Positions 5,021-64,000 of a DNA stretch of 64,000 bases are shown piece after piece. This stretch comes from a virus. Lineage: Duplodnaviria; Caudoviricetes. Location: positions 10,753-74,752 of the IMG/VR virus record IMGVR_UViG_3300020045_009164; one strand, written 5' to 3'. Made by a program: the position numbers and the translations under genes. The notes below the pieces were generated by a model, which was given only the letters and a program-made list of their open reading frames with translations, did not search any database and was not told the origin of the DNA. The first letter of the stretch is position 1. Each line of letters opens with the position of its first letter.

Positions 5021-5244
5021 AACCGGGAGACTTGGTTGCTATTAGAGGGGATTTACGTCTAAATATGAATGGTCAGTGTAGCTATACTCCAGATCAGCTA
5101 GTAGATGGTAAGTATGTGAAACATACCGGACACGGTGGGATTTGGACTGGTGTTGTGAAGAAGATTAGAGGAGACAGGGTTCTGGTTGGAGGAGGTTGGT
5201 GGTATTATAATTTGTGTGAAGTTATAACTGAAGGAGACAAATAA
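5017..5244 (+). CDS. Hypothetical protein (SH3/KOW-like beta protein)
   Basis: MKPGDLV...GVVKKIRGDRVLV pattern. Confidence 0.6.
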   Translation: MKPGDLVAIRGDLRLNMNGQCSYTPDQLVDGKYVKHTGHGGIWTGVVKKIRGDRVLVGGGWWYYNLCEVITEGDK

Positions 5245-5995: not shown

Positions 5996-6336
5996 CCAGA
6001 GACATAACCCCTAACTGTCCTGATTGCGGGGCTGGAATAGGAGAGATTCATTACAACTATTGTGATGTGGAGAGGTGTGCTGAGTGTGGAGGTCAGTATA
6101 TATCATGTGGCTGTCCCGAAAACATCCACCCAAGACTACCTTGGACAGGACACTGGCCAGGAATTTTTGAATGTCAAGAGTTCGGTTGGTATTGTAAGTT
6201 TGTACGTGGCAAGGGGTGGGTTAGTTGCAGTGAGGAAGATACAGAAGCCACGGAGGATTTAAATAAGTTAAGTTTTGAAGCAGTATGGAGTGTTGAAAAG
6301 GGAAGATTCATAAAGTTTGAAGGAGAAGACAAATGA
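5992..6336 (+). CDS. Cys-rich (zinc-binding) phage protein
   Basis: CPDCG...H..CDVERC..CGGQ.ISCGC...WTG.WPG. Confidence 0.75.
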   Translation: MTRDITPNCPDCGAGIGEIHYNYCDVERCAECGGQYISCGCPENIHPRLPWTGHWPGIFECQEFGWYCKFVRGKGWVSCSEEDTEATEDLNKLSFEAVWSVEKGRFIKFEGEDK

Positions 6337-6764
6337 TCCACACACTTGATAGCAGAGACCTACAGAAAGAACTGGAACAACTAGAAGATGATCTCGAATC
6401 AATAACTGCTGAGTGGCAGGATCTCGTTGATGAACTGGCTGAAATGAGAGAGGATGAGGAAGTATCTCTCGGAGAAGAGAGGGAAATGGAAGAGAAAATA
6501 AAAGCCAAGGAGGAGGAAATCGAGGATTGGAAGGGAGACAATCAGGAGAGGTTGGACGATCTAAAGCAACTGTTCACCTCAATCGACGACGACTGTACTT
6601 TGGTCAGAGAGGACAGCTTTGAGGAATACGTACAGGAGTTGACTGAAGATATAGCAGGAGATATACCAAGCTGGTTGGTGATTGACTGGGAGGCTACAGC
6701 TAGAGACGTACAGATGGATTATACAGCTGTGGAATTTGACGGTGAAACTTGGTTGGTGAGGTGA
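6333..6764 (+). CDS. ArdA-like antirestriction (DNA mimic) protein
   Basis: Very acidic; C-terminal IDWEATARDVQMDYTAVEFDG resembles the ArdA C-terminal motif. Confidence 0.65.
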   Translation: MIHTLDSRDLQKELEQLEDDLESITAEWQDLVDELAEMREDEEVSLGEEREMEEKIKAKEEEIEDWKGDNQERLDDLKQLFTSIDDDCTLVREDSFEEYVQELTEDIAGDIPSWLVIDWEATARDVQMDYTAVEFDGETWLVR

Positions 6765-6768
6765 TGGT

Positions 6769-7116
6769 ATGAACTTATTAAAAGAAACACTGGAAGAATT
6801 GGAACGCAACAAAAAGACCATAGACGATGTGGTTTGGATTGGAACCAGAAACATAGAAATATCTAAAGAAAATTTTCTGGTCTTGGCTGATACAGACTAC
6901 GACAACGGCTACGGAGGTCAAGAGGTTGCTATTAACTTGATTATTGTCGGAGAGGGGTGGTGGATGGAGCGGGCTGAGTACGATGGTTCAGAGTGGTGGG
7001 CGTTTAAAATCAGTCCAGAAAGGCCACCTAAGAAGGTTAGTGTTAAGGCACTGACTGTTCACCAAAGTGAAGAGGGTAGCTGGTCCAGCCTGGAGGATTT
7101 GAATAATGTAATCTGA
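6769..7116 (+). CDS. Conserved phage hypothetical protein
   Basis: MNLLKET...YDNGYGGQE...WMERAEYDGSEWW family motif. Confidence 0.8.
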   Translation: MNLLKETLEELERNKKTIDDVVWIGTRNIEISKENFLVLADTDYDNGYGGQEVAINLIIVGEGWWMERAEYDGSEWWAFKISPERPPKKVSVKALTVHQSEEGSWSSLEDLNNVI

Positions 7117-7155
7117 AACAAAAACTGGCCTCCAGAAACAAGCTCTGGAGGCCAG
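7116..7155 (-). terminator. Rho-independent terminator for a - strand transcript
   Basis: 11-bp stem CTGGCCTCCAG/CTGGAGGCCAG, U-tract only on - strand (TTTTTGTTT). Confidence 0.8.
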
Positions 7156-7185
7156 CGGCCTAGGGAGGAGGCGTGAAGGAGACTC
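7116..7185 (-). ncRNA. Candidate ~70-nt anti-Shine-Dalgarno small RNA
   Basis: Own extended -10 promoter (TGgTACTAT, 7198-7190) and intrinsic terminator; 5' GAGUCUCCUUCA and CCUCCUCCC seeds. Confidence 0.55.
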
Positions 7186-7189
7186 TTAA

Positions 7190-7217
7190 ATAGTACCATA
7201 GTTGTATTTTAATACAA
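7190..7217 (-). promoter_or_regulatory. sigma70-type promoter, leftward
   Basis: TTGTAT-16bp-TACTAT with extended -10 TG. Confidence 0.6.
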
Positions 7218-7224
7218 TTAAATA

Positions 7225-7268
7225 TTTACGTCTAAAGTTTATGGTGGTATTATTTTTCCATAAACTTT
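7225..7268 (+). promoter_or_regulatory. sigma70 promoter with operator-like inverted repeat
   Basis: TTTACG-17bp-TATTAT with TG; perfect 11-bp IR AAAGTTTATGG (7234-7244)/CCATAAACTTT (7258-7268). Confidence 0.75.
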
Positions 7269-7276
7269 TATAAAGG

Positions 7277-7552
7277 GTGGAGACAATGGACACAGAAGAA
7301 GAGAAAAAGAAATTGGCCAGAACATCAATGCTGCTCATGAAGGGAATGTTATCAGAGCAGACTCCAGCTGTACAAGCGGCTGTAAAGCTATGTAAAGAAC
7401 AGCTAGGCAAAGTATGTGATGTTTACGACAACATAGGTGGGCCTGTCATAGCCTCAGTAGCTATGGCCCTGCTGACGTTGGAAAGGAGCCTAGGGATTAA
7501 AGATACTAAGCCTGTGGTTAAGGATGAACAACCTAATGTAGTAAAACATTAA
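7277..7552 (+). CDS. Hypothetical protein
   Basis: First ORF after promoter. Confidence 0.65.
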   Translation: METMDTEEEKKKLARTSMLLMKGMLSEQTPAVQAAVKLCKEQLGKVCDVYDNIGGPVIASVAMALLTLERSLGIKDTKPVVKDEQPNVVKH

Positions 7553-7564
7553 AACGGAGACAAC

Positions 7565-8386
7565 ATGAAGAAGATTATGGCTATGGTAGTTGTTGGTTTG
7601 TTGGTGTCGTCAGTGTGTGCTGCTGATGGAATTTCTACTGGAAAATCAACTGGGACTTACTACAAAGTAGGTCACAATATTGCAGCTGGTCTGGGCATGA
7701 GTAAGGACAAAGTACTGGAGTCCAAAGGCTCAGTTGAGAATCTGGACAGGTTGGTTAAAGGAGAGGCTGATATTGCTATGGTACAGATGGACGCCCTAGC
7801 CTTTTACATGACCCAGAATCCTGGAGCTGCTCAAGTTGTGGAGGTGGTCGGCCCACTCTATGAGGAGTGTGTCTACGTGGCTGTCAACAAAGAAGGTAAG
7901 GTCAAATCTGAAGATGACCTCCAGAAGAAAGGAGCGGTAATTGCTATAGGTGAAGAGGGTACTGGCTCTGTAGTGACCTGGGATTACATGAGACAACTGG
8001 AGCCTGGGTACAAAGAATCTGCTGTGTCTTTTACCAGCGGTAACAGAGCACTAGGTAAACTTGCCTCTTCACCAGACTCCGGACTAGATGCTGTGATGTG
8101 GGTGGCTAGACCTGATGCTAAGAACGACCTCCTTCAAACTGTCATGAAGAACAAGAGCTTGAAGATGATCAACATTAACGACAGTAATCTTAATAATGTC
8201 TACAAGCCAACCGGAAAGCCGGTGTATCGTTTTGATAATTTTAAGGTTGAGTCAGGTTTCTTCGCTGACAAAGTAAAGACTATTTATGTTGACGCCGTGG
8301 TTGTAGCAAGATCAGAGGCTGACCCAAAGCTGTTGGAGAAGCTCTCTAACTTGGTCTTAAACTATAAGGAGACATTACTCAAGTGA
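7565..8386 (+). CDS. TAXI-family TRAP transporter solute-binding protein
   Basis: Signal peptide; TGxxxGTYY, SKGSVENL, ADIAMVQMDA, IAIGEEGTGS motifs. Confidence 0.85.
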   Translation: MKKIMAMVVVGLLVSSVCAADGISTGKSTGTYYKVGHNIAAGLGMSKDKVLESKGSVENLDRLVKGEADIAMVQMDALAFYMTQNPGAAQVVEVVGPLYEECVYVAVNKEGKVKSEDDLQKKGAVIAIGEEGTGSVVTWDYMRQLEPGYKESAVSFTSGNRALGKLASSPDSGLDAVMWVARPDAKNDLLQTVMKNKSLKMININDSNLNNVYKPTGKPVYRFDNFKVESGFFADKVKTIYVDAVVVARSEADPKLLEKLSNLVLNYKETLLK

Positions 8387-8475
8387 TCATAGACACTATC
8401 CTATTTATGGCTGGTATTTTCTTGGGTTGGACGGTCAGAAAGTGGAGAAATAAGATCCTCTTCTGGAAGAATTAA
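8383..8475 (+). CDS. 30-aa single-TM peptide (not in ORF track)
   Basis: GTGA coupling to TAXI stop; MIIDTILFMAGIFLGWTVRKWRNKILFWKN. Confidence 0.55.
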   Translation: MIIDTILFMAGIFLGWTVRKWRNKILFWKN

Positions 8476-8526
8476 TATTAAGGAGGCTCCTATTAATTTA
8501 GGAGCCTTAGGAGTAAGGATACAGCG

Positions 8527-10515: not shown

Positions 10516-10871
10516 TGGGAGGAGGATGTGTTTGATCTATTAGAAGAAAAATATAATAAGCCAGAGTGTAAGGGACAGATCTATCGATGCAATGTAAATA
10601 TGTTTCTCAATAGTTCAGGTAACTACGTAGAGAAGGTGACTATGCGCCACCTAAGAACAAAGTCTTGCCGGGGCTGTGAGTGCTGTGGCTATTTGGAGGA
10701 CGATCTCAGGGAGTTCATTGCTATAGGAGAGGGTGCTAGTATCAGGCCAGCCATAAAACATGGTGAGTTGTATAGGTTACAGATAGTTGATGTTGGAGTT
10801 GATTGGGAGACAGGAGCTGCTGATGAGTGGCACATTGCTTTTGTTCTTTTAGCTGCTTGATGGGAGGAGGA
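10500..10871 (+). repeat. 27-bp perfect direct repeat flanking one gene
   Basis: TCTTTTAGCTGCTTGATGGGAGGAGGA at 10500-10526 and 10845-10871. Confidence 0.9.
10528..10860 (+). CDS. Cys-rich phage hypothetical protein
   Basis: KSCRGCECCG; DWETG..D.W motif. Confidence 0.75.
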   Translation: MFDLLEEKYNKPECKGQIYRCNVNMFLNSSGNYVEKVTMRHLRTKSCRGCECCGYLEDDLREFIAIGEGASIRPAIKHGELYRLQIVDVGVDWETGAADEWHIAFVLLAA

Positions 10872-26124: not shown

Positions 26125-26210
26125 ATCTCTGTGGCAAAAGACTCTCATCGGGCTGCGGTGTAGTAAGTCCTGCAAACCTGGAGCGGATAGTCCGTTCCAG
26201 GTTTTCTTTT
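26125..26210 (+). ncRNA. Candidate ~85-nt small RNA upstream of RHH-TnpB
   Basis: No ORF; promoter upstream; GGGCT/AGTCC stem; terminator AACCTGGAGCGGA-TAG-TCCGTTCCAGGTT + TTCTTTT. Confidence 0.5.
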
Positions 26211-46868: not shown

Positions 46869-47130
46869 ATTAAAAGATGTGAGGAAGACGGACTGGTACA
46901 GAAACCTACCAAGAAAGGTAAAAGCCTCAGTAAGGCAGTTTCCACCTGAGGCTGTTGTCATGATAGTTAAAAGTGGAGTCATAGCCCATGTTGAGGCTTA
47001 TGACTGCAAGGGTAGAATACAGTTGTTAATAGACCAAGCTGACAACATGGGTATAGAGGTAGCTCAATTAGAACCTTACCTAGTTAACGGGTATGATCTG
47101 GAAGAACTGGAACTTATCTGTGAGGTGTGA
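46861..47130 (+). CDS. Hypothetical protein coupled to RHH gene
   Basis: AAGGAGG RBS at ATG 46861; antisense to structural operon. Confidence 0.65.
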   Translation: MAKLKDVRKTDWYRNLPRKVKASVRQFPPEAVVMIVKSGVIAHVEAYDCKGRIQLLIDQADNMGIEVAQLEPYLVNGYDLEELELICEV

Positions 47131-51410: not shown

Positions 51411-51904
51411 ACGCCTGTCACCGGATCAACAGCAGGTTTCACAGTTGTCATAAACGGCATTGCTGTGATAGCTGAGGCATTGATGTTCTCTATGCGATAT
51501 CTAACCTCGTCCAGCTTCTTGGTGATTGCCTCTATGACATCTTGAAAAGTTGCCTCTGGTGAGAATCTGACGAGAGATGCCTTGCCATCTGCAATGGACT
51601 TTGGAGCTTTCATTGACAAACTCGTGGCCACTTCCATGGAAACTGTGTAAGTAGCGAACATCCTTGTCAGATTGTAGAGTTTCTGTTGTAAAGCAGTTCT
51701 CTCTGTCATAGCTTTTATGGCTATGTATCTGGTGTCAAGAGGTCCAGGCCCAGGTTCTTCTGTGGGTATTGTGATCTCAGCCAGAGCAAGCCCAAGGACG
51801 TTGTCGTATATCTCCAGAGCGAGTTCCGTATCCGGGAGTTCCTTTTCAGAGACACCCAATGTAGTGCGCACCTCTGCATAGCTAGTATATGTAGTTATTG
51901 CCAT
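51407..51904 (-). CDS. Head-tail adaptor-like protein
   Basis: YT..AEVR..LGV...ELPD motif; synteny. Confidence 0.6.
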   Translation of the reverse strand: MAITTYTSYAEVRTTLGVSEKELPDTELALEIYDNVLGLALAEITIPTEEPGPGPLDTRYIAIKAMTERTALQQKLYNLTRMFATYTVSMEVATSLSMKAPKSIADGKASLVRFSPEATFQDVIEAITKKLDEVRYRIENINASAITAMPFMTTVKPAVDPVTGV

Positions 51905-52182
51905 AGCTTAACCAGACCTACATTCATTTGAGACTCAAGCCAGCCATCCATGTAGAGTTCAACCGGAGTGGTGGTGTCTACGTGCCTGTATTGGAAGGGA
52001 TGGTACAGGTTGAACTTGGTAGCTATGTAGAGGAGCTTATCAGGATTAATACTTTCTTGTGGGGTTGGTTCTGCTAAAATTTCTGGCTCTTGTGGCATGA
52101 TTAGTTCTTCCGCGCCAAATGCTTCAGAAATTTCTAATTCTACAGGAGTCTTGAGTTCTACCTTCTTCTTGGGCCTTGCCAT
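51895..52182 (-). CDS. Hypothetical head-associated protein
   Basis: AAGGAGACTC RBS; first gene after capsid in structural order. Confidence 0.6.
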   Translation of the reverse strand: MARPKKKVELKTPVELEISEAFGAEELIMPQEPEILAEPTPQESINPDKLLYIATKFNLYHPFQYRHVDTTTPVELYMDGWLESQMNVGLVKLWQ

Positions 52183-61034: not shown

Positions 61035-61121
61035 TGGAGGAAGGAGGGAGAGTCGAACTCCCACAGGTTTAACCCCGGCACAGTTTTCAAGACTGCTCGC
61101 CTACCATTAGCGCATCCTTCC
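61035..61121 (-). tRNA. trnS: tRNA-Ser(UGA) with encoded CCA
   Basis: Acceptor GGAAGGA/TCCTTCC, anticodon arm GCAGT-CT TGA AA-ACTGT, long variable arm, T-loop GTTCGACTC. Confidence 0.92.
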
Positions 61122-63942: not shown

Positions 63943-64000
63943 AACCAACTATAGTAACATACCTATCACATACTATCACCATACCTTACCCCTTAAAACG

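Follow-up and report, generated by a model that had tools for sequence, protein, structure and literature searches.

What, if anything, is encoded in the 169-nt spacer (7117-7285) that separates two + strand early genes of an uncultivated groundwater phage? The DNA analysed here, called the window throughout, is a 64,000-nt stretch corresponding to bases 10753-74752 of a 74.7-kb IMG/VR record (IMGVR_UViG_3300020045_009164; CheckV completeness 58%), and all of its genes between positions 1 and 29000 lie on the + strand. We propose that the spacer holds a self-contained leftward small-RNA (sRNA) gene, antisense to all its neighbours. Comparison with related phages makes the existence of a conserved - strand sRNA gene very likely; that the gene exists and also acts by pairing with Shine-Dalgarno (SD) sequences is a joint claim in which we have moderate confidence.

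A first-pass annotation of this DNA had described a leftward promoter, a terminator whose U-tract is present on the - strand only and, between them, a unit of about 70 nt free of open reading frames (ORFs). All of these coordinates were confirmed, and the parts of the unit are as follows:

7217-7212, - strand: -35-like hexamer TTGTAT, lying within the palindrome TTGTATTTTAATACAA (7202-7217)
7198-7190, - strand: extended -10 box TGGTACTAT, 13 nt after the -35-like hexamer
7184-7116, - strand: predicted sRNA of about 65-69 nt, its probable start near 7183-7184 and its probable end that of the U-tract
7183-7174, - strand: 5′ seed GUCUCCUUCA, with the core GUCUCCU and followed by CG, unpaired in the fold
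7158-7172, - strand: mini-hairpin GCCU/AGGC predicted by folding, 4 bp with the loop CCUCCCU, carrying the second seed CCUCCUCCC (7171-7163)
7125-7155, - strand: terminator hairpin with a 12-bp GC-rich core stem (7125-7136 with 7144-7155) and the 7-nt loop GCUUGUU
7124-7116, - strand: U-tract UUUUUGUUU, its last base shared with the stop codon (7114-7116) of the + strand gene upstream

The sequence GUCUCC begins at 7183 (-), 6 nt past the extended -10 box. A sigma-70-type extended -10 promoter would thus start the transcript at or beside GUCUCCUUCA, and a strong Rho-independent terminator would stop it about 68 nt further on. Folding of the 71-nt - strand RNA gives -30.2 kcal/mol (z = -4.35) and leaves its first 14 nt unpaired; the mini-hairpin, 15 nt in total with a 7-nt loop, is a weak predicted structure. 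On the + strand, the terminator stem is followed by CGGCCTAGG, without a T-tract. The site at 7125-7155 is the top terminator-like site of the first 20 kb, and strong intrinsic terminators are few: three in the whole 74.7-kb record and five in a related phage (G001). In both phages the sRNA terminator points against the genes. Another of these rare terminators lies at 26174-26204 (+) in the window and at 46991-47021 (-) in G001; its 14-bp stem with the loop TAG is kept nearly base for base between the two phages, just upstream of an RHH-TnpB unit.

To what extent is this arrangement conserved? A megablast search of 6300-8400 against GenBank phages gave no match, and BLAST of the spacer against the three related virus records found first returned chance-level words only. 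The copy in a relative turned out to be too diverged for BLAST and was recovered by motif pattern alone. A pattern of two purine blocks had 18 matches in IMG/VR, one of them in the closest relative, IMGVR_UViG_3300024999_000075, whose lipoprotein and thymidylate-synthase-like protein are 87% and 90% identical to those of the window. The same architecture is found there at the syntenic place, between an ArdA-like gene and the lipoprotein cluster, with different adjoining genes. Among the purine-block matches listed (131 elsewhere, in viral and metagenome contigs), a hairpin with an A-tract alongside was seen in the related phage only. Two further versions, in contigs L295 and L388, were reached by an exhaustive HMMER search with the ArdA-like protein, which is free of the bias of the purine-block pattern; the ArdA-like proteins of these contigs are 64% and 49% identical, respectively, to that of the window. 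The unit lies two small genes past the ArdA-like gene in L295 and straight after its stop codon in L388. The four variants compared below are:

7108-7220, - strand, window: the whole unit, 113 bp
7760-7872, + strand, L024: unit variant
1607-1718, - strand, L295: unit variant
1201-1314, - strand, L388: unit variant

In all four, the unit is antisense to the flanking genes and lies 0-2 genes downstream of the ArdA-like gene. A covariance model built on the four variants finds one copy per genome (96.7 bits for the single copy in the window) and gave no match in two more distant phages. Six copies of the relative's element, taken from different samples, prove identical and were not counted as extra variants. 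Groundwater samples in which these phages occur include PRJNA268031 and the JGI samples 3300024999, 3300025000, 3300033407 and 3300036763.

The promoter geometry is the first feature that the variants share. The -35 position reads TTGTAT in the window, TTGTTA in L024, TTGTGT in L295 and TTGACA in L388, and TGn-TAnnnT stands exactly 6 nt before GUCUCC in all four. The L388 promoter is near consensus (TTGACA-17-TACTAT with TG). The pattern TTG-N16-TGnTAnnnT occurs at six sites in 128 kb of window strands and once in 21 kb of L024, where the single site is that of the unit. Beyond the promoter, all four folds show an unpaired GUCUCCU at the 5′ end, identical in every variant, and its flanks have diverged.

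The terminator stem varies by compensatory change. The identity of its 5′ arm between variants is only 4-8 of 12, and yet, recounted in the correct register, the 12-bp stem is Watson-Crick in 48 of 48 cells, with both sides changed in 10 of the 12 pairs. A covariation tool run on the covariance-model alignment counted 85% paired cells and double changes in nine of the 12 pairs, a level reached by none of 500 shuffles. It should be noted that the tool count understates pairing: MAFFT sets the 5′ stem arm of the window one column off (its loop has 7 nt rather than 8), and the seven unpaired cells all come from the window row. After the stem, a T-rich tail is present on the RNA strand only, in four of four variants. 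We assign the gene to the - strand because the U-tract and the promoter are both kept in all four variants; the hairpin alone picks no strand. Conservation is at the nucleotide rather than the peptide level: no frame is conserved on either strand, and the short - strand frames have differing starts and frames among the variants, none with a ribosome-binding site (RBS).

Outside the 5′ core, the C/U-rich stretches are less uniform. The first-pass annotation had expected both C-rich seeds to be conserved. This proved correct for the GUCUCCU core of the 5′ seed, found in four of four; the second seed, CCUCCUCCC, is degenerate in L295, absent from the linker of L388, and found in the terminator loop of two relatives. 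These are L024 and L295, whose 32-nt terminator hairpin has the 8-nt loop UCCUCCUC, which reads CCUCCUCCC when joined to the 3′ arm; L388 has AUCUCCCG as the corresponding loop, and the window GCUUGUU. L024 has a comparable mini-hairpin of 3 bp, and in L295 and L388 minimum-free-energy folding predicts none, the stretch being unpaired there.

Altogether, the unit has what is generally asked of a stand-alone sRNA gene: its own promoter and terminator, both consensus matches, no conserved frame, and covariation in relatives. The idea of an independent leftward sRNA gene with anti-SD sequences is borne out by four diverged versions that keep the promoter geometry, GUCUCCU, a co-varying stem and a one-strand U-tract. 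The parts of the putative gene, and selection on its promoter, seed and terminator, are evident from this comparison of sequences; the transcription, action in trans and targets of the predicted RNA are inferred.

How might such an RNA act? It would expose two C/U-rich stretches, the invariant 5′ GUCUCCU and a second one in the linker (CCUCCUCCC in the window), with a third in the terminator loop of three of the four variants (the relatives, not the window). These stretches complement SD sites of the GGAGA/GGAGG type. Most likely, the RNA would pair with the RBSs of phage mRNAs, host mRNAs or both, and block 30S binding in the manner of bacterial CU-rich sRNAs. Since UCUCC pairs with GGAGA and, through G-U pairs, with GGAGG, it could act broadly. 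Within the window, the RBS matches quoted for the two seeds are all present: GAAGGAGAC occurs at 5230 and 34573 (-) in addition to 7175, and GGGAGGAGG at 10517, 10862 and 26758 in addition to 7163, while AAGGAGACTC precedes the gene at 51895-52182 (-) and TGAAGGAGA the gene at 6333.

To put numbers on this complementarity, duplex energies were calculated for the 30-nt 5′ region, giving a mean of -16.5 kcal/mol against 118 phage RBS windows and -11.8 kcal/mol against internal coding windows. As controls we used complements of the phage's own RBS windows, taking every fourth of the 118 for the duplex energies; the 5′ region binds RBS windows more strongly than every sampled control (mean -12.1, best -15.8 kcal/mol). 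For matches of at least 9 nt to RBSs, it exceeds 110 of 118 controls. Anti-SD sequence is thus more concentrated in the 5′ region than in the mirror image of a typical RBS. The proposal that the seeds are matched to the RBS style of this phage therefore stands in part: binding is above the sampled controls, but it is mostly generic, and GGAGAC is present in only 12 of 118 RBSs (about 10%).

Several points weigh against this reading. The complementarity is largely of a kind that any anti-SD sequence would have, matching many RBSs. A target whose RBS co-varies with the seed was sought across the four variants and none was found; the short L295 and L388 contigs gave no clear target partner. The individual targets first named are not kept, the RBS of the ArdA-like gene being different in each relative. 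The phage's own genes have strong SD sites, and indiscriminate blocking would harm the phage too. As to the gene itself, the -10 hexamer of L024 is weak (TAAGCT), the hairpin is equally a hairpin on the + strand, and recognition of the promoter by the host is assumed. Lastly, there are only four distinct sequences, all from related phages, so that shared ancestry inflates the apparent conservation, and two of the four came from patterns requiring the purine blocks.

Does the unit belong to a known family? The first-pass annotation had stated that CCUCCUCCC loops define the cuckoo RNAs of Alphaproteobacteria, and this is correct. In this family (CcsR1-4/RSs0680 and ar14/NfeR1; Rfam RF02791 and RF02344; PMC8034643, PMC10746234), CCUCCUCCC is the one sequence that is conserved; a member has 2-4 adjacent hairpins, each 24-50 nt long and presenting CCUCCUCCC in a loop of 9-27 nt (PMC4615179). 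The window had no match in Rfam at gathering thresholds (65.3 bits for CcsR1, 58.8 for ar14 and 50 for RF02278), nor any at E<=10. Permissive matches were obtained with L024 (CcsR1 17.7, ar14 19.3 and betaproteobacterial toxic sRNA 14.0 bits) and L295 (ar14 27.7 bits, E 0.0017; toxic sRNA 15.8 bits), all below gathering and all on the predicted RNA strand, those to the toxic sRNA over the full model length. Weak as they are, these matches point toward sRNA families rich in C and U. Membership in the cuckoo/CcsR/ar14 group, which the Rfam check was to decide, is thus rejected, all scores being far below gathering. Infernal nevertheless placed the L295 terminator hairpin, with its CCUCCUCCC loop, on the final hairpin of ar14, at high posterior probability.

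Likeness without membership describes the relation best. As in cuckoo RNAs, the anti-SD motif occupies unpaired positions and the stems vary by compensatory change; the motif of L024 and L295 spans the loop and the 3′ arm of the terminator hairpin, ahead of the U-tail. Unlike CcsR, which is co-transcribed with a DUF1127 gene in Alphaproteobacteria, the unit is phage-borne, with no DUF1127 gene nearby and no alphaproteobacterial context. It consists of one real hairpin and a 3-4-bp mini-hairpin rather than 2-4 hairpins, and its invariant element is the single-stranded 5′ GUCUCCU, not CCUCCUCCC; the terminator loop of the window lacks the motif, its single CCUCCUCCC being in the mini-hairpin, and L388 has no CCUCCUCCC. 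It is plausible, from these comparisons, that the unit acts like cuckoo-type RNAs though not a member; the terminator hairpin of the relatives closely copies the terminal module of ar14.

Nearest to the unit in size and likely breadth of action are the toxic double-hairpin RNAs of Betaproteobacteria (RF02278; ncS03, ncS05, ncS27 and ncS62 of Burkholderia cenocepacia), which are 57-67 nt long with two CU-rich stretches and are cited beside the NmsR sRNAs of Neisseria (PMC5688073). Because their overexpression slows growth and they are toxic when cloned in E. coli (PMC5688073), an RNA of this kind can evidently act broadly on translation. They are chromosomal multi-copy host genes, whereas the phage unit has a single-stranded 5′ seed ahead of its hairpins; with 14-15.8 bits in L024 and L295 against a gathering score of 50, and no match in the window, membership was rejected here too. 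The C/U-rich-seed RNAs of Firmicutes (RsaE/RoxS, and RNAIII with its UCCC loops) also pair with SD sequences through unpaired C-rich motifs and block initiation (PMC4615179), but have no sequence or structural homology to the unit. Known phage and prophage sRNAs, such as a prophage sRNA of enterohaemorrhagic E. coli (PMC13502914) and phiKZ transcripts (PMC8244752), resemble it in being phage-borne and short, with their own promoter and terminator; the characterised ones use specific seeds on specific host mRNAs. In the open-access literature, we found no phage RNA built on repeated anti-SD motifs.

In a further reading, rather unlikely in our judgement, the RNA is either a free copy of the mRNA-docking tail of the ribosome or a captured host sRNA module of the cuckoo/ar14 type. 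In the first case, the 5′ UCUCCUUCA and CCUCCUCCC would resemble the 3′ end of 16S ribosomal RNA, and a lytic-type phage would use a host-recognised promoter to make an RNA that soaks up SD sites cell-wide. This would amount to an RNA-only host shut-off, or to a global re-weighting of translation toward escaping messages. In the second case, the phage would drive the host's own sRNA regulon, which would point to the identity of its host.

Could the - strand transcript be real and have no role in trans? It would then be a terminated by-product of a divergent promoter, its insulating terminator sparing the early operon from antisense transcription, or else a cis-antisense RNA that pairs solely with read-through + strand RNA, to which the sRNA is perfectly complementary, and sets off its processing. 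Unlikely as we hold this explanation to be, the setting of the window favours it in that a second promoter-like site, a neighbour and not part of the RNA, adjoins the unit:

7225-7253, + strand: divergent promoter-like site serving the downstream operon, TTTACG-17-TATTAT with TG

The sRNA promoter and this + strand TGGTATTAT promoter stand back to back with common TGGTAYTAT boxes. The palindrome (7202-7217) covers the -35 of the first, and an 11-bp inverted repeat, AAAGTTTATGG / CCATAAACTTT (7234-7244 with 7258-7268), flanks the -10 of the second; palindrome and repeat may be operator sites or a 5′-leader hairpin. However, the 106-nt spacer of L388 is entirely the RNA unit and leaves no room for a partner promoter, which makes the RNA gene, and not the promoter pair, the conserved entity. 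Moreover, the transcript has diverged except in GUCUCCU and the CU-rich loops, whose retention a mere by-product would not need, and the C/U-rich content is denser than in the complement of any sampled control RBS window.

Two observations touch on these promoters more generally. L024 has a shorter repeat, AAGGTT/AACCTT, at the place matching the inverted repeat of the window. The box TG-N-TA(C/T)TAT is found at four sites only in the window, including the sRNA promoter, 7245-7253 (+) and 63951-63959 (-), the last being near the right end, upstream of a leftward gene block; its recurrence hints at a shared promoter class.

Another explanation places the function on the + strand, in a cis element at the 3′ end of early mRNA. 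There, a hairpin followed by purine-rich, SD-like blocks would capture 30S subunits and lend stability to the downstream RNA, or a GGA-rich stretch would serve as a decoy for a protein of the CsrA/RsmA type. STAB-SD and the polypurine stabiliser of phage SP82 are stabilisers to which such an element can be likened. There is no + strand terminator after the gene at 6769-7116, so that read-through RNA would carry the element; AGGAGAC is kept in all four variants, and the + strand hairpin loop is GAGGAGGA in two relatives and CGGGAGAU in the third. A cis element leaves without a role, however, the conserved A-tract ahead of the stem, the conserved promoter geometry of the opposite strand and the fixed 6-nt distance from -10 to block. 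In addition, GGGAGGAGG is not kept in L295 or L388, and an RNase III site would call for stems longer than 12 bp. We regard this explanation as improbable.

A translated + strand mini-ORF or relic RBS, which the first-pass annotation had itself put forward as the finding that would overturn its proposal, fares worse. Here GGGAGGAGG would be the SD sequence of GTG-AAG-GAG-ACT-CTT-AAA-TAG, and the seeds merely its complement. An NTG does stand ahead of the A(A)GGAGAC block in four of four variants (GTG, ATG, ATG and ATG), M-K-E-T is encoded in both the window and L024 with a synonymous ACT/ACA difference, and gene callers drew a 34-aa ORF across the element in relatives of L024. But the conserved block of L295 has lost 1 nt, so that it reads M-R-R-Q... 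in a shifted frame of 22 codons, the ATG of L388 is directly followed by TAG, and an in-frame TAG closes the 34-aa ORF in the window. The products would have 6, 7, 22 and 0 residues, with similarity ending after codon 4; the SD-to-start spacing in the window is merely 1-4 nt, and the U-tract and promoter of the - strand would go unexplained. With its variable lengths, frame shift and start-stop in L388, the mini-ORF is largely refuted and we consider it very improbable. The 34-aa ORF call, at 1752-1856 in L034 (also in L035-L037 and L039), spans the unit of the relative and is probably a mis-annotation.

Least credible of all is a chance hairpin with promoter-like words at an AT-rich recombination junction of gene modules: the adjoining genes do differ between phages, as at a mosaic junction, and in other phages no spacer follows the homologues of the upstream 115-aa gene. 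Against chance stand the conservation of the unit in four variants, the compensatory changes in its stem, its fixed geometry and its presence in each genome as one copy at the syntenic position.

Returning to the sRNA gene, its wider distribution was explored with several other probes. The exact terminator pattern had no match in viral contigs, nor had a metagenome pattern including GGCCTA in metagenomes; a second metagenome pattern had at least 120 matches, and among the matches listed all were GC-rich coding or unrelated sequences, none with the architecture. A promoter-plus-seed pattern had 43 matches in viral contigs, with the unit in L024 only. A seed-plus-loop-motif pattern had 47 matches in genome_contigs, all unrelated, and one extra viral match (L298), a GC-rich coding sequence. 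As for locus probes, homologues of the upstream 115-aa gene (<=60% identity) run directly into another gene with no spacer, which shows that the unit is not carried along with the 115-aa gene. The downstream 88-aa protein had no relative within HMMER's word-indexed reach, and nothing was found with the thymidylate-synthase-like protein. Two other contigs, those of P0181 (ENA ERZ27256991, 3018 nt) and P0183 (Logan SRR14699982, 12.6 kb), have ORF-free spacers of 163 and 164 nt, which according to gene tables sit 1-2 genes after the ArdA-like gene, the position of the sRNA unit.

Two CCTCCTCCC motifs 8-38 nt apart were found at 181 sites in viral contigs, two of them with a terminator and neither like the sRNA unit. 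The IMG/VR loci L175-L294 comprise more than 120 viral contigs with such paired motifs, mostly coding-repeat-like. The terminators follow the paired motifs at 2563 (+) in L268 and 3760 (+) in L275; the L268 site (64% GC) may represent a prophage-borne RNA of the cuckoo type.

The genes around the spacer belong to an early block, which also contains a DUF7222 gene, a TAXI-type lipoprotein gene and a thymidylate-synthase-like gene:

6333-6764, + strand: ArdA-like gene (weak match)
6769-7116, + strand: phrog_3972 gene, 115 aa, upstream neighbour of the spacer
7286-7552, + strand: orphan gene, 88 aa, downstream neighbour of the spacer and first gene of the downstream operon (7286 onward)

The phage-encoded TAXI/NMT1-like solute-binding lipoprotein (phrog_6856) is at 7565-8386. 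At least 24 contigs, of groundwater and other metagenomic origin, carry an 87%-identical copy; among cellular proteins, the closest homologues share about 50% identity and bear the annotation of TAXI receptors of TRAP transporters. In the spacer between the lipoprotein and thymidylate-synthase-like genes there is another hairpin, at 8484-8507 (AGGCTCCTA...TAGGAGCCT), with GGAG/CTCC within its arms and no good T-tract on either strand. A single tRNA-Ser gene (anticodon UGA) lies at 61035-61121 (-).

What would the sRNA gene mean for these phages? To our knowledge, RBS-blocking CU-rich sRNAs, though established in bacteria, have hardly been described in virulent-type phages, and the take-over tools that we know of in such phages are almost all proteins. 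The role first suggested for the RNA, a translational timer of anti-defence genes or a means of host shut-off, is one that its predicted action might serve. At 113 bp, the unit is short enough for synthesis and for trials in a laboratory strain, with no need of the phage or its host. The ar14-like terminator hairpin of the relatives raises the question of whether the motif was borrowed from hosts or arose independently. A family of groundwater phages thus appears to keep an RNA gene beside early anti-restriction-like genes; if it acts as proposed, it would add an RNA layer to the phage's control of translation, of its own early genes, of host genes or of both.

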